Shown: positions 2,664 through 52,248 of the stretch, piece after piece | How positions within the stretch are numbered: the stretch's first letter is position 1 | Layout of the letters: each line of letters begins with the position of its first letter | Source: a virus | Virus record (IMG/VR): IMGVR_UViG_3300014039_000004 | DNA length: 64,000 bases | Direction: 5' to 3' (one strand) | The notes under the pieces: generated by a model | The model's input: the letters and a program-made list of their open reading frames with translations, nothing else | Told to the model about the DNA's origin: nothing | Databases searched by the model: none | Translations under genes and position numbers: made by a program

Positions 2664-4303
2664 TGAGCAATTTTAATTATGATGAATATGATAATCTTAT
2701 TAATAGTAGAGATTATCTAGGTGCAGCTAATTATATGAGTAAATTTAGAGCTAGTACTCCAGAAGACCAAATAAAAGCAAATAATCTTATTAGACAACTT
2801 AAACGAGAAGGAGAAATTAGAGCTGCACGTTTAAGTAAAATGACTGATGAGCAACGACAAGCTTATGATTTTTTTAGTGCTATGGAAGGTAAAGGTACTA
2901 TTCCTCATACAATATATGATGAAAAAACTGGTCAACCAAAAAATGGTACTAGTAATATGTATGGTGACAAATATACTTCTTATATTAATAATATTAAAAC
3001 ATCTGATGGTAAAGATATAAATACTCTTAAATTTAACATTGCTAATGATGAAACAATGAGTATATTATATAAAACACTAGGTGTTAATGATATTACTGCT
3101 AATCAAAAATATGGAATAGATATTTATAAAGATAATAAAACAGGTAAATATAGTATAGCAATAGATAAGCATAATTCAAACCTTATGACTATACTAAATG
3201 TTTTAGATGATAATCCAATAGCTAGTAATAGTTTTGTTACCGGTTTTTATAAGATAAGTCCTTATACTGTTGAAGGTTTAGATAATAAAGGTAATTCATA
3301 TAAATTATTTGCAGGTCATTTTAGTAATATAGAAAGAGCTAAAAAAATTTATAATGATGCTAAAGATGAACAAGAAGAAGTCTTAAATGCTTTAGAACCT
3401 AAAAATACTCTTTATAAAACTACAGTTAGTCCTTTTCTTGGTGCAGGTCAAGCTAATGCTTATAAACGTTATCAACGTGGTGAAATAAGTTTTAATGATT
3501 ATACTAAAATTGTTAAAGAAAGAACAGAAATTTATAATACTCTTATTAAGCAAGCTGGCTTAACACAATATGATGTATATGCTACTGAAATAGGTAATGA
3601 AGATAAAGGAGAGGTTCTTGAAAAAACTGATAATATAACTAAGAATCAATTAGAAAAAGCACTTCTTGTTGGTATGGATGAAGGTAGAGTCACATATAGT
3701 GCTGCTATTGTAGCAGGTAGAACTGGAACATATATTACTATTGCTCCTAAAGCAGATAATAAAGGAAATTATATGGAAGGAGATGCTGCTAAACCAATGA
3801 GATTATTTATTCCTGGTCTTTTTCAAAGTAGTTGTGATGAAACTTTTGAAAATGATACTAAAACTACTGCTATGAGAGATATGGCAGATATTCAAACTTA
3901 TCAATATGCTAAACAATTACATGATGGTACAGCTGTTGGATATGATGAAAGAGTAGGTTTTTATAAACAAATGGTATCAAATGGTAAACTTAATATAGTT
4001 CCTGTAGATGAAGAAGAGGTTCTTGCAAGTCTTAATAGACAAAATATTATAGATAAATCTGCAGACCAACTTATATCTAGTATAGGAGCAGACGGTAAGC
4101 CTTTAACCCGTAATGTGAATGGTGTTGAAACCCCATATGATATTTCTGCTATGGGTAAACTATTAGCTTCTGCTGGTACTCAAGAACTTTTTGATGGAAT
4201 AGCTATTGATAAAGGTACACAATTACAAGAAGAAAATAATATTTATAATGATATTATGAATATTCTTAATAATTTTTATGCTAATTATAATACTAATAAT
4301 TAA
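2663..4303 (+). CDS. hypothetical virion-module protein
   Basis: 546-aa ORF whose ATG overlaps the preceding TAA (TAATG at 2661-2665), which suggests translational coupling. No motif recognised. Confidence 0.7.
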   Translation: MSNFNYDEYDNLINSRDYLGAANYMSKFRASTPEDQIKANNLIRQLKREGEIRAARLSKMTDEQRQAYDFFSAMEGKGTIPHTIYDEKTGQPKNGTSNMYGDKYTSYINNIKTSDGKDINTLKFNIANDETMSILYKTLGVNDITANQKYGIDIYKDNKTGKYSIAIDKHNSNLMTILNVLDDNPIASNSFVTGFYKISPYTVEGLDNKGNSYKLFAGHFSNIERAKKIYNDAKDEQEEVLNALEPKNTLYKTTVSPFLGAGQANAYKRYQRGEISFNDYTKIVKERTEIYNTLIKQAGLTQYDVYATEIGNEDKGEVLEKTDNITKNQLEKALLVGMDEGRVTYSAAIVAGRTGTYITIAPKADNKGNYMEGDAAKPMRLFIPGLFQSSCDETFENDTKTTAMRDMADIQTYQYAKQLHDGTAVGYDERVGFYKQMVSNGKLNIVPVDEEEVLASLNRQNIIDKSADQLISSIGADGKPLTRNVNGVETPYDISAMGKLLASAGTQELFDGIAIDKGTQLQEENNIYNDIMNILNNFYANYNTNN

Positions 4304-4315
4304 ATAATACAAAAT

Positions 4316-7300
4316 ATGGATGTTACAGGTATATTTAATGCAGGTGGTGTAGTAGTTAAAAATCCTAATTATACTAAATCTAAAAAAAACACTCAACCAA
4401 AATATATTACAGTAACTGATTTTAGTCAACTTCCGTCAGGCAGTACAACAAGTACTGCTTTGACGGATGTCGCATATCAAGGAGCTGAGAAAAATGGAGT
4501 TATTTTAGGAGATTATAATGATTATAAAAAATATATTAATCATGGAATAACACCTAATAGTATTGACCAAGATTTAGATATTCAACTTGCTAATAGTCAA
4601 GGTTTTTGGACTAAAGCATTTAATGGTTTAGCACAAGCAGCTGTATCTGAAATAGGTCTTGGTACACTTAAAGGTTTTAGTGATATATTTGATTTAGCTG
4701 GTCAAATTACAGGTTTAAGTGATGGAGATTATACAAATCCAGTTAGTAAATATCTTGAAGATAAACAAGAAGAATTTAAAGAATTTGCTCCTGTATATGT
4801 TGACCCTAATAAAAATATTTTTAATGATGGTCTTCATGACCCAGGATGGTGGTTTAGTAATATACCTAGTATTGTAAGTACTGTTTCATTATTAGTTCCA
4901 GGTTTAGCTGCTGTTAAAGGAGTATCATTACTTAATGATGCACTTAAAGTAAGTTCTTTTACTAGAAAAGCAGTTAGAACTTTAAGTGGTGCAGAAAAAG
5001 CTATTAAAGCAGGTAAAGAACTTAATGCTGCTCAAATATTTTTGAATAGCGAAAGTACTGCTAAACAAGTAGGTATTTTCTTAGAAAATGGACTTACTGC
5101 TATGATGAGTAGAGCTGCTGAAAATTATCAAGAAGCTAGACAAACTTATAGTGATAACTATCAAGATTTTAGAGATACTATTAATAGCATGAATGATGCA
5201 GAATATAGTAAATTTATTCAAGATAATAAAAAACTTCTTGCTGATAAAGAAGCTAATCCTAATAATAAAGATGAAGTAGCTAAAGCAATAGCTTCAGCTG
5301 CTGCTGATAGAACATTTCAAATGGACTGGGCAAATGTAGTATTTGATGTAGTTCAAATGTATGGTCTTAGAAATGCTTGGAGAGGTCTTAAAAATGCACA
5401 AGATGATCCAATCAAAATAAGAAGAGCAAATAAAGATGCAGCTAAATATTTAGGTAAAAGTAAAGAAGAAATTGCCAAACTTAAAGCAGCTAGACCTACT
5501 TATAAAAAAGCTGGTGAATGGATTGGAGATAACATATATGGTAGTGGTTTAATAGCAGCTAGTGAACTTTCAGAAGGTGTAGAAGAAGCTGTAAACTATA
5601 TTGCACAACAAGAAGGTATTCATTTTGGTAATACTCTTTTAAATAAAGAAGAAGGTTCTAAAGATACTGGTTGGCTTGCTAGTATGAGTAAATATTTTGA
5701 CCCTCGTATGAAACAATATGTTCAAGCTCCTGAACTTTGGGATAGTGCTTTTTGGGGTGTATTAGGTGGTGTAGTATTTCAAAAAATAGGTAGTACATTT
5801 AATAGAATTAAACAAAAACTTAATGATGATAAATCTGAAGCTCAAGAAAAAGCTAAAGAAAAACTTCCTTGGTATAAACTTGATGAACTTCCAGAAACTA
5901 AAAGAAGATTAGCTGATATTGAAGCTCGTACTTTAGATTTTCAAAAGTATCAAAAAAATCTTGCTAAAATTAATCAAGGTATTGATGTTTATAAATCATC
6001 TGAAAATAATGAAGTTAAATTTGATACAAAAGAAGAACAAAAAGCTGCTGCTGATAAACTTAAAAATGAATATATTGCTACTATGACACTTCGTGCAATG
6101 AATAGTGGTAATCTTAATATGCTTAAAGCTTATATTAACAATGATGAATTTAGAAATGCTATTATTGAACAAGGAATTTTTGGAGATACTAAAAATAAAT
6201 CTAAAGAACAATTAAATCAAGAAGCTAAAGCTTATACAGATGATGCTTTAAGTACTATTAATAAAGTAGAACGAGCATACGATGAAGAACTTGTAGCTAT
6301 TAATACTGCTGCTGCTAATATAGGTAAAAATAAAAAAAGTAACACTATGCCTATTGAATATATGCAAATAATGGCAGTAAATAATGTAAAAAGTAGACTT
6401 GAAAAAGAAAATATTGATACTGAACTAGTTCCTGTTAATAAAAGAATTGCTGAACTTAAAACTCAATTTGCAGAACAATTAGACCCTAATATTGATTATG
6501 ACCATATTATTAAAGTTGGTATTCTTACTCATCAATTAGGTGAACTTTATGCTACTAGAAGAGAACTTACTAAAAATGATACTAAATCTTTAAGTAATCA
6601 ATTAGCTGTCAAACGTATTGATAAAAGAATTAAATCTATTGAAAATGATTTAAATGATGAAGAATTGGTATATGGTAATTTTATTGCTTTACAATATAAG
6701 TTTGATAAAGATAATAAATTAGTTCAAAGTAAAGAAGATAAAGATTTACAAGAAGCTTTTGCTTATAGAGATGCTCAAATAGTAAAAGAACTTAATGATG
6801 GTAATACATCAAAAAGTATTAATATTCCTGGTTTAGAATTTCTTAGTGAACGTAGTAGAAAAACTATAAATGAAGAAACTATAGGTAAATATAAAACTCT
6901 TGAATCTGATACTAAAACTGTATTTGATTCTATTCAAGATATAAGTCCTGAACTTAATAATCTTCTTCAAACTAAAGTTCTTCTTGAAAAACGTAAAGAT
7001 TATATTAATACTGAACTTACTAGAACTGTAAAACAAGTAGAAGAAGAAGGTAATATTCTTCATAATACTATGAATGAAGCTAGAGTTGAAGCTATTAATC
7101 AAGCTAATAAAACAATTCAAACTTTGTATAAAAAACATGGTAACGATATTAGAGAAGCTATTTATAATAGAATAAATAATAATATTACTAAACATAAAAA
7201 TTTATCTGATGAAGAAAATAATTCTTTAAATAATGCTCTTGAAGTTCTTGATTTAACTAAAAGTTATAATACCAATCTTATTGATACTATCGAATCACAA

Positions 7301-10300: not shown

Positions 10301-12349
10301 ATTCTTAATTCTAATGATAAATCTCTTAATAAAGGAGAAGCTATTATTGGATTAGTTTATAATGGTGATGTCTTAAATATTTTTAAGTCATTAAAGTTAT
10401 TACCTAAAAATATTATATTTGATGAAAATTTTAATAATCAAGAAGGTTATGAAGGAATTAATGCTCAAGTTAATACTAAAACAGGTGTTGTTACTGTAGG
10501 TAATAAATGGCTTGATATGTTTAAAGAACCCAGTACTAGACAAGAAGCTATTCGTAAACTTATTCATGAACAAATACATTATAAATTACATTATAAACTT
10601 TCTAGAAATAGAGGTTATGTTCGTAGTGCTAAAGCTATTTATCAAGAATTTAAAGATAATCTTGATAAAGGAGTTGAAAATGAATGGTATAAAAAATGGA
10701 GAGAAACTAATAATATTAGTAAAGAAGATGCTGATAAACATTTCAGACAATATCTTTTTGAAAATTTAGATGATGAAGTAGCTCTTGAAGAATTTTTTGT
10801 AGAATCTCTTACTAGTAATGAATTAGCTCAAATGCTTAATAGTATTGATACTAATGAAACTACAAGTAGTAAAAGAAAGAATTTATTTCAAAAAATACTT
10901 GAATTTCTTGCAAATGTTTTTGAATGGAATGTAAGAAAAGGTAGTCTTTATGAAAAAGAACTTAATACTCTTCGTAATCTTAAAGATGATGTAAAAGAAA
11001 GTAAAAACAATGTTGAAGATAATAATAGTTCTTTTAACAATGTTCAAAATAATCAGCAACAAACTAATAATGAACAAACTCCTGCAACAATAGAACAAAA
11101 AGAACAAAAAACTGAACCTAAGCCAGAAATTAAACCAGAAGTTAAAGTAGAAAATCCTGGTAATACTAAAACTAATACTAAATTTGGTACTAATAATAGT
11201 CGTAGACTTAGAGGTAAATTTAAAAGTGAAGTTACTGAAATTAGTAATTCTTATAATGAAGAAGAACAAGCTATTATAGATAAGGCTAAACAAGATGGTA
11301 CTTTTATGAAAGCACCTAATGGTAAACAAAGTAATCTTAATGAAAAACAATGGGTTCAAGTTAGAACTAAAGCTTTTAAAGATTGGTTTGGCGATTGGGA
11401 AAAAGGTACTATATTTACTGCTAATAATGTTGATAATGTACAAGCATTAAAAGATAAATATCCATCTACTTTACCTAATAAGTTTTATCATCATTCTACT
11501 AATAAATTTGGAAGACAATCTTTTAATCCTAAAGAAGGTACTAAAGAACGACTTCATATTATTGGTAGACTTACTACAGATAAAGTAGATGTTCTTATTG
11601 TAGAAAATCCTAATAGTGATAATCCTATTTCACATATAACTTTAGCTACTGCTGAAGGTATTAAACCTTTTGAAAGTAATAAAGAACTTCAATTACATAA
11701 AGATAAAATTCAACCTCTTAATGATTACGTAGATACTACATTTAGAAATAATATTAGTAATGATGTTTCAAAAGTAATTGATGAAAATGGTGAGCCATTA
11801 GTTGTTTATCATTATACAAATAATGAAGATTTAACTGAATTTAGTACAGAGTTTGATAATTATTTTTCAAAAGCAGGAGGTACTAAGAAGGCTATATTCT
11901 TTACTACAGATAATGTTGAACCAGGTAGTGAAGATAATTTCTTAACAAGTAGAAAAGCTAAACTGTCATTATTCTTAAATATAAAGAACTTAGAAGTATT
12001 TCATGGTACTAAAGATGATTTACATAAACAAAAAACTTCTTATAGAGAAGTTGTAAATAAATCATCTAAAAGACAAGGTTTTGAAAATGGTATGGTCTTT
12101 ACTGGTTTTGATGATAATAAAAAAGAAAATCAAACTATATATATTATTCATAATTCTAATCAAGTCAAATCTGCTATAGGAAATAATGGTAATTTTTCTA
12201 AAGATGATAATAATATTTATCATAGTAGTGTAACTGAACTTAAACGAACTGCCAATATTCCATCATTTATTGATAGTTTACCAACATCAATAAAAAGCAG
12301 AGTAAGCCAAATGATTAATTCTGCTGACTTGAAAATATCTTGTCGATAA
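4316..12349 (+). CDS. giant virion/ejected polyvalent-type protein with zincin-like metallopeptidase motif and ART-like C-terminal domain
   Basis: Uninterrupted 2677-aa ORF. HEQIH (HExxH) lies at nt 10565-10579. The C-terminal region has FKDWFGDW (11375-11398) and ENGEPLVVYHYT (VVYHYT at 11801-11818), resembling the ART-PolyVal signature of phage polyvalent proteins. Two Pro/Thr/Gln-rich linkers lie at about nt 7380-7620 and 7890-8040. Confidence 0.85.
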   Translation: MDVTGIFNAGGVVVKNPNYTKSKKNTQPKYITVTDFSQLPSGSTTSTALTDVAYQGAEKNGVILGDYNDYKKYINHGITPNSIDQDLDIQLANSQGFWTKAFNGLAQAAVSEIGLGTLKGFSDIFDLAGQITGLSDGDYTNPVSKYLEDKQEEFKEFAPVYVDPNKNIFNDGLHDPGWWFSNIPSIVSTVSLLVPGLAAVKGVSLLNDALKVSSFTRKAVRTLSGAEKAIKAGKELNAAQIFLNSESTAKQVGIFLENGLTAMMSRAAENYQEARQTYSDNYQDFRDTINSMNDAEYSKFIQDNKKLLADKEANPNNKDEVAKAIASAAADRTFQMDWANVVFDVVQMYGLRNAWRGLKNAQDDPIKIRRANKDAAKYLGKSKEEIAKLKAARPTYKKAGEWIGDNIYGSGLIAASELSEGVEEAVNYIAQQEGIHFGNTLLNKEEGSKDTGWLASMSKYFDPRMKQYVQAPELWDSAFWGVLGGVVFQKIGSTFNRIKQKLNDDKSEAQEKAKEKLPWYKLDELPETKRRLADIEARTLDFQKYQKNLAKINQGIDVYKSSENNEVKFDTKEEQKAAADKLKNEYIATMTLRAMNSGNLNMLKAYINNDEFRNAIIEQGIFGDTKNKSKEQLNQEAKAYTDDALSTINKVERAYDEELVAINTAAANIGKNKKSNTMPIEYMQIMAVNNVKSRLEKENIDTELVPVNKRIAELKTQFAEQLDPNIDYDHIIKVGILTHQLGELYATRRELTKNDTKSLSNQLAVKRIDKRIKSIENDLNDEELVYGNFIALQYKFDKDNKLVQSKEDKDLQEAFAYRDAQIVKELNDGNTSKSINIPGLEFLSERSRKTINEETIGKYKTLESDTKTVFDSIQDISPELNNLLQTKVLLEKRKDYINTELTRTVKQVEEEGNILHNTMNEARVEAINQANKTIQTLYKKHGNDIREAIYNRINNNITKHKNLSDEENNSLNNALEVLDLTKSYNTNLIDTIESQFDIQDMIKAQQEVQDESNNTADEKGNDTTEEESNTSQPEPNPNPATTPQPEQGVGSTIIQNPISEPQPSQPINQSTQQQKIPTGQKTGQQGNNQIEETLPQTSSIASASRIEIDNNGKVTWNINGNIGIVTKKAENGNDVIIINNDESKLTDTFFDNVGEVDLTRPIKVETNPYIDENNILHKGHLSNTDTLATQTEESTPQNNSTPQTAPQTTPQAAPQISSTGEPTTNQTSSAKAQLPQTKNAEPVPNLNDSEDAITNSAIQSTIVAFKANHDLDFDTYTKELIDDFVGKGYDRVVVEKAVTRGVNIIKRTAEKLKSKAPTTMRSSVDEYIIQSSIVELSNTEDFGTEFIQAAKNLINQYSKENGIRIINNKKYINLENMLRYINETTSDSNTANFIYYTLKEYLKTNKAKEEFITIDEDSIDNNDFLNNVAKSSEERYKEKLEDITIQRVDINTITKQLDENGKKEFYEALNELQKDEELQIEMYDDKILLYDSKKRLVGRLPIPFINASTGAYEVYNDGWKYDILSNNDKIDSKLKNLFLKWIDGKDKASKELNDIIYELAFSNPTKERKFELLDKFSSNSEIIKAKGQGLTHKSITDAELANGLVKLWKFVSCSSTNNNLLNNIARKTSIALWFKKLNNSYDAITALKNEGAVKIIVANISDGELIKVQDRVTDSAVLPSASNAIAGGVNSAVHKIAIGDKFNLGTVKVSGNTPIKFNGIGRTNTFVMLSNRSNRPTFVQAYPVKVTDTNMSAEAKEIIAAIKGHIAKLLHNYSNESTEDNYNALKEFLVNAFSVRNGNNTLFNGVIVTVNSKLENESISIGIPNTSFVFQFYKNNKFGNPSSLVKIKKDGNWVKVPFNSEDSINYINDIIDKLVFKFNFGYIEADNVSDMTLKGIAKRHKGKFEITVGDKTWSYNSFNEFILNNNLVRLNTKPSEDGKSNFKPRGENQKANQVFEIKIEKQTSSPVEESTQSNSTKPVNQPTQVTKSINEQVSDILNSNDKSLNKGEAIIGLVYNGDVLNIFKSLKLLPKNIIFDENFNNQEGYEGINAQVNTKTGVVTVGNKWLDMFKEPSTRQEAIRKLIHEQIHYKLHYKLSRNRGYVRSAKAIYQEFKDNLDKGVENEWYKKWRETNNISKEDADKHFRQYLFENLDDEVALEEFFVESLTSNELAQMLNSIDTNETTSSKRKNLFQKILEFLANVFEWNVRKGSLYEKELNTLRNLKDDVKESKNNVEDNNSSFNNVQNNQQQTNNEQTPATIEQKEQKTEPKPEIKPEVKVENPGNTKTNTKFGTNNSRRLRGKFKSEVTEISNSYNEEEQAIIDKAKQDGTFMKAPNGKQSNLNEKQWVQVRTKAFKDWFGDWEKGTIFTANNVDNVQALKDKYPSTLPNKFYHHSTNKFGRQSFNPKEGTKERLHIIGRLTTDKVDVLIVENPNSDNPISHITLATAEGIKPFESNKELQLHKDKIQPLNDYVDTTFRNNISNDVSKVIDENGEPLVVYHYTNNEDLTEFSTEFDNYFSKAGGTKKAIFFTTDNVEPGSEDNFLTSRKAKLSLFLNIKNLEVFHGTKDDLHKQKTSYREVVNKSSKRQGFENGMVFTGFDDNKKENQTIYIIHNSNQVKSAIGNNGNFSKDDNNIYHSSVTELKRTANIPSFIDSLPTSIKSRVSQMINSADLKISCR
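7963..7979 (+). repeat. G-run motif copy M1 (forward)
   Basis: ttcttctacgggggagc, inside CDS 4316..12349, where it is read as SSTGE. Confidence 0.9.
10206..10222 (-). repeat. G-run motif copy M2 (reverse)
   Basis: gctcccctgtagaagaa on the + strand, inside CDS 4316..12349, where it is read as SSPVEE. Confidence 0.9.
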
Positions 12350-12415: not shown

Positions 12416-15400
12416 ATGAGTTGTCCTATTCAAATAAAAGAAAACAGTGTTGTTAATAGTCTTAAATCCATATTTGGAGAAAGTAATGATTTAGTTACTT
12501 TAATAGCTGAGACTACTGATGGTAATAAATTTAATTATGATTTTCAAAAATGGGCTAAAAAACATTATAATCACGAATTAGATTTTAATACTATAGATAA
12601 AGTAGATGAAACAGTTAAAGCTATTCGTGATTATCATAATTATCTTCATCCTGATGTTAATTATACTGCTACTATTCAAAATGATGCTACTAATGTAGCT
12701 CATTTTGGATATACAAGTGTTACAGCCAGAGAAAAAGGTAAACAAATTGTAGTAGATAAACTTTTAAATATTAAACATCAGCTTGAACATGATTATCATG
12801 AAAAACCTGAAGGTAGTAAAAAAGTTTATTTTGCTGATGCTGCTACTTCTGTTATTGAAAATGTAGTTGTTGAAAGAGTTATGAATAGAACTAATATATC
12901 ACAAGATGATGTATATGATATATTAGATGCAGATAATTGCTTTGAACAACTTGATAATATTCTTGGTACTAGTACTGAACAAGATAAAAATGTTCTTGCT
13001 CTTTATAAAGAAATGATTAATAATAGAGAAGAATATTTTGAACAAGTTTTTAATGATAGTCGCCTTGGAGATATTAGATTTGAAAAAAATGATAATTTTG
13101 AAGATGATAATCAAGCTGTTGAAATAGCAGAACAAGAAGCAGATGATGATATTGATTCTGAATCTGTTAATACTGATGAAGATACTAATGGAACAGAAAG
13201 AGATAATTCTATTAATCAGCTTAATAATAAAGATGGTCAATACAATAATTTTATGACTCATGTAGGAATGAGTGTTAGAAGTTATATTGGCAGTCTTAGA
13301 AAATGTAATACTACTAAGATGATTAATAACGATTATGACTTTGATACAAGTAATGAACTTGGCATAGCTGAAGCTATGGATATTAACGAAGTCATGACTG
13401 TTCTTTATAGTAATATTGATTTTACAAATGTTAGTGATATGATTCAAAGTATTGAACTAATTGCTAACAATATTCCTGGTATGGAAGGTCTTATACAAAT
13501 GAGTGATTATCTTAAAACTAATGAAGATTTTGCTTATGAAGTATATCGTACTTTTGCTAAAATAGCTATATCTAAACTTGAAACTATTTCTGATGGTAAT
13601 AATATTAAAAGTATATTAAGTAATCGACGTGCTGATAAACTTACTTCTTTAAGATTTGAATATTTTAATTCTGTTAAATCTACTAGTATTCTTTTAGATG
13701 ATTTAAATAGTAGAGAAATATATAATTCTCTTAAAAGAGAAATAAATGATTATGCTCAAGCTGCTGATATTCTTAATCAAGCTGAAGATAATAAAGATAT
13801 TATTGATGAGGCAGATAAAGAATTATTATATCAACAATCAGGAATTAAACTTGATGAAATAATTAATGAATTAGCTAATCAATTTAAACGTTATTATCCA
13901 ACTATTGAATCTAGTTTTATAGCTAATTATATTAAAAATAATAATGATGGAGATATTGTTGCTAATATGAATAATCTTAGTACAATATTGAAAAATACCA
14001 TTGATGCTAGTTATAAAACTCAACTTAATTATTATAGTCAACAAGCTGAACTAAGAAAGGCTTATGCTCATAATAAAGCACTTGATGCAAGAAAAGCTGA
14101 TGGTGAATTTGTTAAAGCTAGTGATTATATAGATTTAACTCTATATTATAATAATGATTATGTAGATAGTTCTACACAAGCTGCTGCTTTTGGTTTAGCT
14201 AATGAACTTGTTAAATATAGTCCTGTTAAAGTAGAACTTAATTCTCGTAATGTTCATGGTAATCTCTCTTCTGATATTATTAATAATAGTATGATTACTA
14301 ATGTTATTAATACATTAAAATCTACTATTGCTCTTGAAAACTTTGGTAAATACAAAAGTCAATCTAGGCAATATGATTTTAGTAATATTATGATTGAACA
14401 TAAAGATGAAGATGGTAATATTATTAATTATGGTCTTTTTACTTTAGATGAAGAAAGTCAAGATTTTATTCCTACATCTTATGCTAGAGAATTAATTAAA
14501 GCTAGATTATTTAGTGGAGCTAGCGATATGACTAGTTCTAAGAATGTTCTTTATTCTGAAATGAGTAAAGGAGATTATATTGCTACTAGTTTTATTAATT
14601 ATTTTACTACTGAGCGTAATCATAATCTTACTGATAAAGATCCTAATATTGAATTTGCTAATTATTTTATGAGAATTCCTAGTGATGCTCCTAAAAACTT
14701 TATTATAGTAGCTCCTAGATATTCTACTAAAGAAACAACAGTTGGTGCAAATAATGGTTTATTTGTTATTACAAATAAAATTGAAGCTAATCGAGAAATA
14801 AATAAACGAATTAATGAATTACCTACTTTAGATGAAGATTATGTAAGTGATGATAGTCTTTGTATTAAACGTAGTTTAAATCAAGCTATTAGTAATATCA
14901 CAGCTAATAATATAGGAAATATTGTTATTCCTAATAAAGCTTTTATTAATGAAAAAAATTCTAAAAAAGGAGATACTGTTACTATAAATTGTATATATAC
15001 TAATGCTGATGGTATTGAAACTCAATATGTTCTTATAGGTACTTTAGGACAAGATAATGGTAAACTTATTTTAGAACAACCAACATTCCAAGGGTTTGCT
15101 GGAACTACTAAAAGTTCAGAACTTGTACGTGCTCTCGAAAAACATTATCAAAAAGAACTTATAAAAGAAGGAGTTATTAAAAGAGAAATTAATACTAATC
15201 ATCCTGTTTATAAACAATTACATAATGTTTTTGTACAAGAAATTACAGATGCTGCTACTGCTCTTAATCATATTTTTAAATGTGGTCCTGATGGTAGAGT
15301 TCTTGTAGATGATAAAGGTAATCCTATTTTCAGAGAAGGCTTTGGAGATAATCCTGAAACTATTAGAAAAATGTATGATGTTTATCATAGTAATGGTAAA

Positions 15401-26570: not shown

Positions 26571-26644
26571 GGGTCAATAGCTCAACAGGTTAGAGCAATA
26601 GACTGTTAATCTATAGGTTGTAGGTTCGATTCCTACTTGTCCCG
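26571..26644 (+). tRNA. tRNA-Asn(GTT)
   Basis: Cloverleaf read by eye. D stem gctc/gagc; anticodon stem ataga/tctat with loop ctGTTaa; T arm gtagg-ttcgatt-cctac. The acceptor gggtcaa/ttgtccc has one T-T mismatch. Confidence 0.8.
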
Positions 26645-26680
26645 CAAATAACTCTGAGAGTAATCAGCCTGAAGCTGGTA

Positions 26681-26762
26681 CTAGTAGTTTAGTTCAATAG
26701 GTTAGAACGTGCTAATTTGTGTTGAGAAGTAAGATATGGGTTCAAGTCCTTGTCGCTACTAG
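26681..26762 (+). pseudogene. degenerate tRNA-like element (anticodon arm not foldable)
   Basis: A terminal helix of up to 9 bp (tactagtag/ctactagta), a D-arm-like ta-gttc-aataggtta-gaac and a T-loop-like gggttcaagtcc are present. No 5-7-5 anticodon arm could be found in any register. Confidence 0.35.
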
Positions 26763-26768
26763 TATTAA

Positions 26769-26840
26769 GGGGTGTTCGTCTAAAGGTTAGGACAACAGGT
26801 TTTCATCCTGTAAATGATGGTTCGATTCCGTCACATCCTA
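26769..26840 (+). tRNA. tRNA-Glu(TTC)
   Basis: Acceptor ggggtgt/acatcct (with G-U pairs); anticodon stem acagg/cctgt with loop ttTTCat; T arm gatgg-ttcgatt-ccgtc. Confidence 0.8.
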
Positions 26841-26852
26841 CAATTAATACTT

Positions 26853-26925
26853 CGCAAGATGGAGCAGATGGTAGCTCGTTAGGTTCATAACCTAAAGGTC
26901 GCAGGTTCGATTCCTACTCTTGCAA
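26853..26925 (+). tRNA. tRNA-Met(CAT) with C1-A72 mismatch (initiator-like feature; Met, fMet or Ile2 not resolvable)
   Basis: Acceptor cgcaaga/tcttgca; D stem gagc/gctc; anticodon stem ttagg/cctaa with loop ttCATaa; T arm gcagg-ttcgatt-cctac. Confidence 0.8.
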
Positions 26926-26978
26926 CAAATGTTTTGAGAATGTTTAGTGCGCTTTAAATTTTTTAATTTTAAAATTTT

Positions 26979-46653: not shown

Positions 46654-46714
46654 TTTACAACAAATTTAAAAATTAATATTAAGTTTATAAATAATAACTC
46701 TAAATAGAGTTTTG

Positions 46715-46787
46715 TCTTCTCTACGAGGCTCGAACTCGTGACCCATACATTAAAAGTGTATTGCTCTACCTACTGAGCTAAGAGAAG
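46715..46787 (-). tRNA. tRNA-Lys(TTT)
   Basis: On the - strand: cttctct-ta-gctc-agtaggta-gagc-a-ataca-ctTTTaa-tgtat-gggtc-acgag-ttcgagc-ctcgt-agagaag-a. All stems are Watson-Crick. Confidence 0.9.
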
Positions 46788-46883
46788 AATTGATATTACT
46801 ATTTTCACAAACCGTAATATCATATACAATAAACCAAATAACAATTAAAGTTTATCAACTATGAAACACATTATTTTAAATAG

Positions 46884-46967
46884 TACCTACAACAGGACTC
46901 GAACCTGCACATCTTATAAGATAATGGATTTTAAGTCCATTGTGTCTACCAATTCCACCATGTAGGC
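46884..46967 (-). tRNA. tRNA-Leu(TAA), class II
   Basis: On the - strand: acceptor gcctaca/tgtaggt, anticodon arm atgga-ctTAAaa-tccat, long variable arm tatcttataagatgt and T arm gcagg-ttcgagt-cctgt. Confidence 0.88.
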
Positions 46968-49665: not shown

Positions 49666-49730
49666 GGAGACATACAGGATTCAAACCTGTATCTACAATA
49701 GTAGGTTTTGCTCTATTAAACTAATGTCCC
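49666..49730 (-). pseudogene. truncated tRNA-like element (65 nt, no canonical D and anticodon arms)
   Basis: On the - strand: a 7-bp acceptor gggacat/atgtctc and a perfect T arm acagg-tttgaat-cctgt. Only 31 nt lie between them, and these fold as taatag-(11 nt)-ctattg. Confidence 0.35.
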
Positions 49731-49738
49731 CATTCAAC

Positions 49739-49861
49739 TTAATGTTGAATACCTATATTAACAGGATTTACAATATCAACAATAATACTCCAAGCAAGTT
49801 CTTGTTGACCTTGAGTTTCTGCTTTAAAAAAAGCATCTAAGTAATAACCTAATTGTTTCAT
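49739..49861 (-). CDS. small hypothetical protein (40 aa), below the ORF-track cutoff
   Basis: Hand-translated as MKQLGYYLDAFFKAETQGQQELAWSIIVDIVNPVNIGIQH. It ends 8 nt before the tRNA-like element. Confidence 0.3.
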   Translation of the reverse strand: MKQLGYYLDAFFKAETQGQQELAWSIIVDIVNPVNIGIQH

Positions 49862-49906
49862 AGTTTTAATATTAATAATAGTTTTATTATTTAAACTATC
49901 AATGTG

Positions 49907-49953
49907 TCCTAGACAATTTCTAACCTTGTTACAATAGTTTTATTTACTAGGAC
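49907..49953. repeat. nested stem-loop element E1 with invariant 17-mer
   Basis: Outer stem gtcctag/ctaggac; inner stem acaa/ttgt with loop tttctaacc; invariant tacaatagttttattta at 49930-49946. It lies 8 nt from the stop of 49962..50183. Confidence 0.7.
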
Positions 49954-49961
49954 TAATAGTA

Positions 49962-50183
49962 TTATTTGAATACTATAAACAAACCATATTCATTAGAATA
50001 TATATCTGTAATATCAGTATCACAAATTGTTACTATATTTTGAATTTTGACAACAGTTACATCAACATTACTTAAAATATTGATGACAGCTTTTCTTGCT
50101 AAAGTATTATTAGCAAATTTAATGTCAAGTGAGCTATTAACCATGCTACAACTTTCAACTCTTCTAAATCTAATTGTTTTCAT
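49962..50183 (-). CDS. small protein, paralog A of a tandem pair
   Basis: 73 aa, roughly 40 percent identical by eye to 50485..50706 (MK.IRF.RVE ... KF...T.AR ... VDVTV ... NE.G.FI.F). Confidence 0.7.
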   Translation of the reverse strand: MKTIRFRRVESCSMVNSSLDIKFANNTLARKAVINILSNVDVTVVKIQNIVTICDTDITDIYSNEYGLFIVFK

Positions 50184-50426
50184 ACTTGTAAATTTTAATT
50201 GTTAAAGAATTGATAATCTATAAACCCATCAAGGATAACTTAATTATCATGAATTGTATCACTTATAATATAAGTTACAATCAAGTTTAAGAGTTTCAAT
50301 TACTATTTCATTTATGCACTCTTTAAGTTAATGAAAAGAATAGTTCTTATATACTCTGAACTATTAATATGAGGAATATTATTATTCTCACGAACCATAA
50401 TATTAAAAACCATAAAAATTCTAAGT

Positions 50427-50474
50427 CTCCACTCTGAGTTCTAACCTCAGTACAATAGTTTTATTTAAGTGGAG
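50427..50474. repeat. nested stem-loop element E2 with invariant 17-mer
   Basis: Outer stem ctccact/agtggag; inner stem ctgag/ctcag with loop ttctaac; invariant 17-mer at 50451-50467. It lies 10 nt from the stop of 50485..50706. Confidence 0.75.
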
Positions 50475-50484
50475 TATTAGGATA

Positions 50485-50706
50485 TTATCTAAAAGTTATA
50501 AAATATCCTTCTTCATTGACTTCAATGTTACAATTAAAGCCAATAGTAATCTGAACTGTAGCATTAATACGATATACAGTAACATCTACTTGCTGTAAAA
50601 TTTTTGCAGCAGTATTTCTAGCTACTGTATCATCATTAAATTTAAAAATAGCTATACCATTCTCAAATCTAAATGCTTCAACTCTTGAAAATCTAATTTG
50701 TTTCAT
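50485..50706 (-). CDS. small protein, paralog B of a tandem pair
   Basis: 73 aa. See the entry for 49962..50183. Confidence 0.7.
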   Translation of the reverse strand: MKQIRFSRVEAFRFENGIAIFKFNDDTVARNTAAKILQQVDVTVYRINATVQITIGFNCNIEVNEEGYFITFR

Positions 50707-51097
50707 ACTTTTGTTATTTACTTATACTTATTTATTTTAATAGTTCACAGATACAGAGCCATTATTAATCATATTAATAGTTTCTCTCTGTATTTCGTCC
50801 AGTCTCATCAGTGTAAATTTTAACGTCTCCTGGATGACGACTATTATTAGACTAAATAATAGTATCTAACTCTTGAATAGTTTCTCTTATAGTCTGTTTA
50901 AGCCATTATTCAAAAGTATAAGCACTAGTTTATACGCTTATTTATGTAAGGTATCTTCTTACAATACTTTTTTCAACATTATTATTATTATAGTTTCTAT
51001 ATGAAGTACCATATCCATTATAATAATAAAAAAGCACACTTGTATTAATAAGCAGTTTATACACTTGCTTAGGTGTTTCTGTTTCTTAGATATTATA

Positions 51098-51505
51098 TTA
51101 AAAATCTATCTTTAAAATCTCTCTAATAACATCTGATAATTTTGATTGAAGCAAAATTGTAAGTTCTCCATCTCTCTCTAAGATAAATTTGAACTCTATT
51201 CCATTTTTTATCCAATGTCCTGAACGATAATATATCTTATACTTGGAAAGTCTATCTTTAGAAAGAGAAGCTGCTAAAGCAAGAAGATTAATATTTTGAC
51301 CTTTTGCTGCTAAAGCATTTCCTTTAGTCTTAATATTATCAATTATGCTTCCTGTATGAAAACTAAATTGCATAATTTCACCCTTACTTTTTTTTAAATA
51401 AGAGTTTGCAATTTCTAGAAATTCTTCATAAGAACTAAACTTTTCTCCAAAGAATCCAGTTCCTTCAAAACTATTTTCTATTTTAATATTTACGTAATAT
51501 TCCAT
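51098..51505 (-). CDS. hypothetical protein
   Basis: 135-aa ORF flanked by long spacers. Confidence 0.6.
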   Translation of the reverse strand: MEYYVNIKIENSFEGTGFFGEKFSSYEEFLEIANSYLKKSKGEIMQFSFHTGSIIDNIKTKGNALAAKGQNINLLALAASLSKDRLSKYKIYYRSGHWIKNGIEFKFILERDGELTILLQSKLSDVIREILKIDF

Positions 51506-51860
51506 AATGTTCTTATTTAATAATGATATTACTATTTATAATAGCTATAATATGTATTATTACTATACTAATTAGTATTATTATTAGTATGATATTTATC
51601 AGTTGTAAAAACAACTTCAATGAGTTTGAGATTATGAGTAGGAGAATTAGAATTAACAGAAAAGTGAGATTGAGAGATAGTACCACTTACACTTCCTCTT
51701 ATTTCTATACTCCTACCATATCTTTCAGGTTCTTCAACACTTATTAGAATATTTATCTAACAAGGTAAATCACTTCCATTATTCCAAAAGTGATTATTGC
51801 TTCTATTACTAAAAGCAAACAAAATTTCAAATCGTCCATATCTTCATCTATTTTATTGTT

Positions 51861-51906
51861 CCCACTATGAGTTCTACTCTCATTACAATAGTTTTATTTA
51901 AGTGGG
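51861..51906. repeat. nested stem-loop element E3 with invariant 17-mer
   Basis: Outer stem cccact/agtggg; inner stem atgag/ctcat with loop ttctact; invariant 17-mer at 51884-51900. It lies 9 nt from the stop of 51916..52167. Confidence 0.75.
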
Positions 51907-51915
51907 AAAATAGTG

Positions 51916-52167
51916 TTATAGTTCAACACTAACACCAATTTCTTCAGGTTTATCAATAACATAACCTAAAGAAACATTTGTTGTATCAGTGATATAAATA
52001 TCACCATCTTTTACAACAAACTTGCCCTCAAGACCTAAATTAATAAGTCTTTCAGACTCGAACTTAGCACGAGCAGCATTACGAAAAATGATACCAAACT
52101 GCTTGTTACTCACTACTGTACCTTGTACGTGGTATAACGTTGTGTGCTTTCTTTCTCGCATAGTCAT
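51916..52167 (-). CDS. hypothetical small protein
   Basis: 83-aa ORF, GC-richer, followed by nested stem-loop element E3. Confidence 0.6.
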   Translation of the reverse strand: MTMRERKHTTLYHVQGTVVSNKQFGIIFRNAARAKFESERLINLGLEGKFVVKDGDIYITDTTNVSLGYVIDKPEEIGVSVEL

Positions 52168-52190
52168 ATCTTATTGTTTTGATTATTGTT

Positions 52191-52234
52191 AGAGTACTTA
52201 GTACAACATTATAAAACATTGTACCAAATACTCT
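52191..52234 (-). terminator. nested hairpin after gene 52249..52740
   Basis: Outer stem agagta/tactct and inner stem gtacaa/ttgtac. It lacks the E-element 17-mer. Confidence 0.4.
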
Positions 52235-52248
52235 AATATTATCTAAAT

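Follow-up and report, generated by a model that had tools for sequence, protein, structure and literature searches.

Three repeats (E1, E2, and E3) in a 64,000-nucleotide (nt) stretch of viral DNA (IMG/VR virus record IMGVR_UViG_3300014039_000004; hereafter the window) are true copies of a previously uncatalogued RNA family, about 50 nt long, of crAss-like gut phages. The large terminase of the window is 83% identical to that of Wotdevirus murinus MH552500 (Crassvirales, Intestiviridae), so the window itself is from a crAss-like phage. The new family is well supported, by 48 distinct copies in which three helices covary; it has no counterpart in Rfam 15 and can be annotated at once. As for its function, we tentatively favor a role as a tRNA mimic that would mark the boundaries between genes for tRNA-processing enzymes.

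The window contains exactly three instances of the 17-mer TACAATAGTTTTATTTA, on the plus strand at 49930, 50451, and 51884; near-matches with 3 mismatches are at the level expected by chance (window scan). Each occurrence lies in a 48-nt unit (E1 at 49906–49953, E2 at 50427–50474, and E3 at 51860–51907) that joins the 17-mer to a 7-bp outer stem and an inner hairpin of 4–5 bp. Read on the plus strand, the outer stems of E1, E2, and E3 are gtcctag/ctaggac, ctccact/agtggag, and tcccact/agtggga; the inner stems are acaa/ttgt, ctgag/ctcag, and atgag/ctcat; and the hairpin loops are TTTCTAACC (9 nt), TTCTAAC, and TTCTACT. An earlier note on this DNA (the original prediction) had described the nested stems and the exact 17-nt core that the three copies share, and both are seen in the window. 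It had the stems right, but its start was one base off and it gave E3 an outer stem of 6 bp instead of 7 bp.

On the minus strand, each copy consists of the 5' strand of the outer helix (P1), a connector, the inner hairpin (P2), the 3' strand of P1, an unpaired A, and a conserved C. In E2, our reference copy (50425–50475), these are the P1 5' strand at 50474–50468, the connector at 50467–50451, the P2 5' strand at 50450–50446, the loop GUUAGAA at 50445–50439, the P2 3' strand at 50438–50434, the P1 3' strand at 50433–50427, A at 50426, and C at 50425. E1 (49904–49954) has N-1 at 49954, the P1 5' strand at 49953–49947, the connector at 49946–49930 (UAAAUAAAACUAUUGUA, 17 nt), the P2 hairpin (4 bp) at 49929–49913, the P1 3' strand at 49912–49906, the unpaired A at 49905, and the conserved C at 49904; it scored 67 and 65 bits in two covariance-model searches. 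In E3 (51858–51908), P1 is formed by 51907–51901 with 51866–51860, the connector is at 51900–51884, P2 is formed by 51883–51879 with 51871–51867 around the loop AGUAGAA (51878–51872), and A and C are at 51859 and 51858. The folding energies have z scores from -0.7 to -3.6 across E1–E3, with E1 unremarkable and E2 and E3 moderate (the minimum free energy of E2 on the minus strand is -16.1 kcal/mol, z = -2.9). Because these energies are only moderately unusual, the case for a structure rests on the comparison with homologs.

To collect homologs, we scanned IMG/VR with the core and with two degenerate patterns, along with one metagenome scan and one scan of species genomes, and candidates were then screened by covariance models (R1 and R2) or by a stem filter. 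This search yielded the 48 distinct copies, on Crassvirales-type contigs of 40–240 kb. The 42 distinct gene-strand copies align without gaps, and 96.4% of the pair cells in this alignment are standard pairs, with values by helix of 94.6% and 98.6%. Both sides have changed in 14 of the 16 pairs, and all three helices covary. (We also computed covariation on a smaller plus-strand set.) None of 500 shuffles matched the observed pairing or covariation, and when the partners were slid by 1–3 columns as a control, only 29–38% of cells paired. A selected structure with compensatory changes, which had been proposed from three copies, is thus supported by 42–48 homologs. The consensus of the minus-strand RNA is 5'-P1 - U R A A U A A A A N N A Y U G U A - P2 - R U U N N A A - P2' - P1' - N - C - W - A.

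The hairpin loop also pairs, through three of its bases, with the connector (the "core") to form a 3-bp pseudoknot. In E2, CUA of the connector (50456–50458, minus strand) pairs with UAG of the loop (50441–50443); the corresponding pairings on the minus strand are 49935–49937 with 49920–49922 in E1 and 51889–51891 with 51874–51876 in E3. Across the 42 copies, pair 25-42 is GU in 19, CG in 13, AU in 8, and GC in 1; pair 26-41 is CG in 20 and UA in 20; and pair 27-40 is an invariant A-U (42 copies). The forms are CUA/UAG, GCA/UGU, ACA/UGU, AUA/UAU, and GUA/UAC, or four Watson-Crick combinations and a form with G-U. The exceptions are three singletons with one broken pair each. Because of this pairing with the loop, the core is not simply unpaired. 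Nor is it invariant, as the three copies in the window had implied: family members have TACAATGC..., TACAATGT..., or TACAGTAT... on the plus strand, two copies have a 14-nt connector (a 3-nt deletion), and one copy lacks the outer stem's 5' strand.

The original prediction described the element on the plus strand. We concluded that the functional molecule is instead the minus-strand (gene-strand) RNA, because three kinds of evidence agree. RAGATH-1 hammerhead ribozymes (Rfam RF03152) are found on the gene strand, one open reading frame (ORF; 0.3–0.6 kb) away from the element, at at least 10 loci (the window, L008, L073, L095, L124, L101, L110, L102, L380, and L384), and in no case do they share the strand of the "TACAATAG" reading. 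A variant that falls below the threshold, with GAUGAAA in place of GACGAAA, is at 3560–3650 of L107. Also, the gene strand has 15 G-U pairs, as compared to 5 on the other strand, although the count for the stems alone (6 vs. 4) is not decisive. Finally, the commonest form of the pseudoknot has U-G on the gene strand and A-C on the other strand.

The element always lies within arrays of small ORFs on the same strand and never at a strand switch. In the window, the minus-strand ORFs at 49962–50183, 50485–50706, and 51916–52167 stop 8, 10, and 8 nt ahead of E1, E2, and E3. This close spacing had been put forward as a feature of the element, and it holds in the window but not among the homologs, whose upstream stops are 1–390 nt away (1–22 nt in about half of the copies and 76–390 nt in the rest). 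A steadier neighbor is the start of the downstream ORF (with ATG), which is 19–41 nt away in about 70% of copies. Hammerheads are placed in a similar way: they end 38–39 nt before a start codon in the window, L110, and L386. The hammerhead in the window (50745–50840, minus strand; 63.4 bits vs. a gathering score of 56.3) is in the intergenic slot between E3 and E2 and ends 38 nt before the ATG at 50706 of the 73-amino-acid (aa) gene 50485–50706. We group it with the element as one of a set of RNA signals between cistrons.

The proteins that flank the element belong to more than 30 unrelated clusters, a given family may precede it in one genome and follow it in another, and none of the flanking proteins that we tested has a PHROG function. 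Because the flanking gene families are so diverse and interchangeable, the element is a generic intercistronic signal and not a feature of the 3' untranslated region of one kind of gene. We rejected a gene-family-specific regulator for the same reason. Identical elements have different upstream or downstream genes in L047, L081, L082, and L073, and the elements therefore mark recombination (mosaic) junctions of accessory genes. In a slot-substitution comparison for the 173-aa upstream gene, its close relatives all keep the element, and the distant ones have neither the element nor a hammerhead. Within the window, the ORFs at 49962–50183 and 50485–50706 (both on the minus strand) are 73-aa paralogs, about 40% identical by eye, and each is followed by an element; the stems of these two elements have wholly diverged, while the loop and connector are identical. 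As for host promoters, matches to sigma-70-like promoters are at chance level (27 vs. 21.5 expected), and no Bacteroidota -7/-33 pair (-33 TTTG, -7 TAnnTTTG) is conserved in or after the element, as judged by eye.

Copies of the element are found singly or as 2–3 copies within 0.4–2 kb, and a single IMG/VR dataset or human-gut assemblies are the source of many of them. The contigs that contain them are rich in tRNA genes, often with amber-suppressor tRNAs. Among 185,579 species genomes, searched with a strict pattern, the few matches in "bacterial" genomes were to contigs of metagenome-assembled genome (MAG) bins, with 1–2 copies each; one of these contigs (L268, 111,025 nt) is as long as a viral contig that was already in our set. 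These genomes contain no tandem array of the element that would suggest mimicry of CRISPR (clustered regularly interspaced short palindromic repeats), although distant repeats could escape a strict pattern. Searches of annotated phages with megablast (using 4 kb) or blastn (using a 50-nt consensus) gave no match.

The original prediction did not recognize the element, and Rfam does not either: running cmscan with Rfam 15 on 2.5 kb and on a 91-nt slice, we found no family match on the elements at the gathering score or even at E ≤ 10. Two weak overlaps, to Prevotella-2 (35.9 bits vs. a gathering score of 72.1, covering the inner hairpin of E2 and the hairpin downstream) and to PGK (18 bits), were taken for chance. 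Neither Rfam 15 nor our literature searches (on crAss promoters, on tRNA-like elements of crAss-like phages, and on phage minihelices) turned up an earlier account, though the element may correspond to an unnamed candidate of the 2017 RAGATH motif survey.

The original prediction mentioned neither the nearby hammerhead and tRNA-like gene nor the tRNA-like anatomy of the element, which is the basis for our interpretation. As in the acceptor/T-arm minihelix of a tRNA, helices of 7 and 5 bp are contiguous on the 3' strand and are capped by a 7-nt loop (ungapped 42-copy alignment). This 7+5 bp coaxial layout is constant throughout the copies, and the loop is closed by G-C in 41/42 of them. The 5' strand of the outer stem is followed by an invariant U and then by A or G (compare to U8 and R9 of tRNA). 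Like the substrates of RNase P, the element also has an intercistronic site and ends with one unpaired base and then a conserved C (N-C-W-A). Unlike a tRNA, it lacks a D arm, an anticodon arm, a T-loop of the form UUCRANY, and an encoded CCA; it has a 3-bp pseudoknot in place of the elbow, and its cleavage is only predicted.

The 3' tail can be compared to the tRNA genes of the same loci. Using tRNA numbering, position 74 is C in 47/48 elements and in 93/98 tRNA genes (the background frequency of C is 15%); position 75 is T or A in 48/48 elements and 86/98 tRNA genes; and position 76 is A in 39/48 elements and 62/98 tRNA genes. Only 7 of these phage tRNA genes have C75, so the CCA is templated for its first base only. 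The element has the same kind of 3' end, with a discriminator base followed by C74, and its tail copies that of the phages' own tRNA genes. (The tRNA genes of the window are at 26571–26926 on the plus strand and 46714–46967 on the minus strand.)

From this anatomy, we propose that the element might be a tRNA-mimic punctuation signal for RNase P and for 3'-end processing. This is a plausible interpretation but a tentative one: our data establish the structure, strand, family, context, and tRNA-like end of the element, and the cleavage and the enzymes are what we infer. The small-gene region would be transcribed leftward (on the minus strand) into a polycistronic RNA, within which the element would fold into a compact, 48-nt pseudoknotted RNA with a 7-bp outer helix, a 17-nt connector, a 5-bp inner helix, and a 7-nt loop. 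The inner helix would continue directly into the outer helix on its 3' strand, with the unpaired base and the C next, to give the acceptor/T-arm half of a tRNA, and the pairing of the loop with the connector would substitute for the T-loop/D-loop elbow. The host's tRNA-processing enzymes would mistake this RNA for a tRNA: RNase P would cut at its 5' edge, and the tRNA 3'-end machinery would cut after the unpaired base or after the C. The operon's transcript would be split there, which would separate the neighboring cistrons and release an RNA of about 50 nt. Such cutting between cistrons would resemble what is expected at the neighboring hammerheads and tRNA-like genes.

There are precedents for parts of this proposal. 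tRNA-like substrates of RNase P include the precursors of the C4 RNA of phages P1 and P7 and of the CI RNA of phage P4, as well as the mammalian mascRNA, and tRNA punctuation of mitochondrial transcripts separates cistrons. C74 of tRNA pairs with loop L15 in the RNase P RNA of bacteria, and the conserved C of the element might do the same. More speculatively, the Crassvirales might have a family of armless tRNA mimics, with a pseudoknot as the elbow, that punctuate early or accessory operons together with hammerheads and tRNA-like genes, and the excised RNA of about 50 nt might be functional in itself, as a decoy or a cofactor, and possibly be completed with CCA. We hold this extended version with less confidence. 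If the excised RNA had its own function, this would explain why the unpaired connector is so strongly conserved.

Few viruses of the human gut are more abundant than the crAss-like phages, and next to nothing is known about the expression of their early and accessory operons. If the element is a tRNA mimic, then these phages would have a ribozyme, tRNA-like genes, and a minihelix as three interchangeable means of punctuation. The element would also offer a new minimal answer to what RNase P and the 3'-end enzymes need in a substrate, and it could serve as a compact insulator of 50 nt in the engineering of Bacteroidales and their phages.

Several observations weigh against the tRNA-mimic proposal. 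The loops of the element (GUUAGAA, GUUGUAA, AUUAUAA, or AGUAGAA) do not fit the T-loop consensus UUCRANY (U54-U55-C56-R57-A58) and resemble it, through a conserved U-U...A, only one base out of register. The Rfam tRNA model (RF00005) has no match on E1–E3 at the gathering score or at E ≤ 10; ARAGORN does not call them either, and there are only 17 nt between the two helices. About 60% of the copies have an A before and a U after the 7-bp stem, which could form an eighth pair, and the phages' tRNA genes differ in mostly having U before and A after the stem. Because all copies belong to one family, the match of the tail is roughly a single observation, with a chance of ~0.04 given the base composition. 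The sequence similarity between the element and the tRNA-like gene in the window is marginal (p ~ 0.03). The connector is conserved beyond what a processing signal recognized only by its shape would need, which suggests an additional or a different function. And the element is absent from Wotdevirus murinus MH552500, which is the nearest annotated relative, so it is dispensable.

Conserved unpaired bases are also what sequence-specific binding predicts, so the element could instead be an operator or a stabilizer in a 5' leader, with a phage or host protein that binds the connector and the loop and controls the translation or decay of the downstream message. In about 70% of copies, a same-strand ORF does start 19–41 nt downstream, however far away the upstream stop is. 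But the downstream genes are from many unrelated families, the same family can be on either side, and no candidate binding protein co-occurs with the element. Also, in the window, E2 and E3 precede only ORFs of 33 and 28 aa and about 250–350 nt that lack a convincing gene. We consider this explanation unlikely. A role for the upstream gene, with the element at its 3' end as a factor-dependent terminator or a block to exonucleases, would account for the 8–10 nt from stop codon to element in the window and the 1–22 nt in about half of the homologs. It would not account for the 76–390 nt in the other half, for the same-strand gene that always follows, or for the conserved connector and tail. As the original prediction had noted, the element is not an ordinary intrinsic terminator: no terminator-like site was scored at E1, E2, or E3, and no U-tract comes after them (the tails are ACAUUG, ACUUAG, and ACAAUA). 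We consider a 3'-end role improbable.

Another rival, and the main one for classifying the element, is that it represents a small self-cleaving ribozyme of a new class, which cuts the polycistronic RNA unaided and does the same job as the hammerheads. In its size (about 48 nt), in its covarying helices around highly conserved unpaired bases, and in its pseudoknot, the element is similar to small ribozymes, and at the 10 or more loci with RAGATH-1 hammerheads (RF03152) it shares their genomes, operons, strand, and kind of intergenic slot. Searching for motifs that are associated with hammerheads has been a source of new ribozyme classes before (the strategy is described in PMC5737381). On the other hand, the element lacks the hammerhead core CUGAUGA...GAAA, and at E ≤ 10 there was no Rfam 15 match on the elements to hammerhead, twister, twister-sister, pistol, hatchet, hepatitis delta virus (HDV)-like, hairpin, or hovlinc ribozymes. 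The layouts of HDV-like, pistol, and hammerhead ribozymes also failed when compared by hand. If the element is drawn as an HDV-like/theta fold in which P1 is the outer helix and P3 the inner one, there is no conserved P2 or P4 downstream; a pistol-like fold on the plus strand was ruled out by the A-C mismatches in the pseudoknot and by the hammerheads being on the other strand; and if the outer helix is stem III of a hammerhead, there is no GAAA upstream. Self-cleavage would leave the tRNA-gene-like 3' tail unexplained, and in two copies the conserved connector tolerates the loss of 3 nt. Catalysis is only hypothetical and, in our view, rather unlikely. The element would be a variant of the tRNA-like processing signals if the tRNA-mimic interpretation is right and a new ribozyme class if it self-cleaves instead.

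The element might also act as DNA, either as a hairpin promoter, extruded in single-stranded DNA, for the virion RNA polymerase or as a hotspot for the recombination that shuffles gene cassettes. Phage N4 has hairpin promoters for its virion RNA polymerase, and the window is similar: three conserved copies, each with a hairpin, lie in the early region, and the phage carries a virion RNA polymerase. The virion polymerase of the crAss-like phage phi14:2 transcribes denatured DNA, and no motif for early promoters is known (bioRxiv 10.1101/2020.03.07.982082). In L024 and L089, hairpins that resemble terminators, with T-runs, are just upstream of the element, and the identical elements at mosaic junctions in L047, L081, L082, and L073 would fit with recombination. 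However, those junctions could be a by-product of any shared 48-nt repeat. A promoter would have no use for a pseudoknot or for a conserved tRNA-like tail, and it is hard to reconcile with an element that is always inside same-strand arrays. Furthermore, the commonest pseudoknot form has an A-C mismatch on the template (plus) strand and U-G on the gene strand; unlike in N4, this wobble asymmetry and the pseudoknot indicate an RNA of the non-template strand, and the stems are nested and much larger than N4's. We doubt that the element has a DNA role.

Returning to RNA, we compared the element to other known systems. The preQ1 aptamer of Bacillus subtilis contains AUAAAAAACUA and GAGGUUCUAG. The element is similar to the preQ1-I aptamer (RF00522) in having an A-rich run and then CUA that pairs with UAG of a hairpin loop (in the element, AAAUAAAACUA and GAGGUUAG). 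But the element's A-rich strand is 5' of the hairpin and not 3' of it, which gives another pseudoknot topology. Its loop lacks the C that binds the ligand and has only AA after the pairing bases. Also, its pairing bases covary to GCA/UGU, AUA/UAU, and GUA/UAC, it has no match in Rfam, and it is found in many gene contexts. The RNase III sites of phage T7 and the promoter-early stem-loops of T4-type phages are intercistronic processing sites or shuffling cassettes. The element is like these in being a repeated structure between small early or accessory genes, at mosaic junctions. Unlike them, it is too short for an RNase III duplex (12–13 bp with a 17-nt bulge), has no recognizable host promoter, and has a pseudoknot and a tRNA-like tail.

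Two other ideas about the element were rejected. It is not likely to stimulate read-through or frameshifting, despite its 8-nt spacer and pseudoknot, because the connector has in-frame UAA codons and the spacing varies. Nor is there a conserved pairing between the A-rich connector and the leader downstream (type A copies have CAAACAAAAC leaders).

Downstream of E1, a 65-nt tRNA-like gene at 49666–49730 (minus strand) starts 8 nt past the stop of the ORF 49739–49861, in a slot like those of E1–E3. It scores 37.3 bits against the Rfam tRNA model and is not called by ARAGORN. It has good acceptor, D, and T arms, a 12-nt mini-hairpin that replaces the anticodon arm, and the tail C-C-U-A, and it shares the 9-mer ACUAUUGUA with the element's connector. 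Within this gene, CTACTATTGTAGAT is identical (14/14) to the 3' hairpin of the Cas12a direct repeat TAATTTCTACTATTGTAGAT, as printed in PMC11055879. Judging from this identity, the gene could be a CRISPR-repeat mimic on a tRNA scaffold, or in other words an RNA anti-CRISPR against type V-A.

A geometric search of the gene strand of element-bearing loci identified two armless minihelices with A-C-U tails that are unrelated to the element. One is at 13353–13394 of L096 (plus strand), directly before a match to the Rfam abiF RNA (13403–13440). The other is on the minus strand of L234, at reverse-strand offset 859 (about 11012–11058 in plus coordinates). They are 42–46 nt long, with a 7-bp stem, a connector of 11 or 15 nt, and T-arms with the canonical T-loops UUCGAUU and UUCGAAG, and neither is called as a tRNA. 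As independent minihelices with this tail, they count in favor of the tRNA-mimic interpretation.

tRNAs with the CTA anticodon (reported as "Pyl" by ARAGORN) are common in related contigs (L064, L073, L084, L095, L096, L110, L124, and L127), so it is likely that amber stop codons are reassigned in these phages. In the window, reading TAG or TGA as sense adds little to the total length of ORFs.

There are several other features of note near the elements. A partial copy of the core without stems (AATAATAGTTTTATTATTTAAAC), at 49870–49895 on the plus strand, lies between E1 and the ATG at 49861, and may be a decayed element. Directly downstream of E2 is a long hairpin with a GUGA loop (50355–50450, minus strand), which overlaps a doubtful 33-aa ORF (50312–50413). 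A candidate 28-aa hydrophobic ORF begins 20 nt past E3, at 51839 and downward. The spacer at 52168–52248, between the 163-aa and 83-aa genes, has another nested inverted repeat (tagagta...gtacaa...ttgtac...tactcta), with neither the core nor a U-run. Finally, positions 4640–4900 of L061, read on the minus strand, are a G+C-richer non-coding stretch upstream of an array of small ORFs, with the repeated motif ggaaagacRagcRttttt. This stretch may be another RNA or a pair of terminators.

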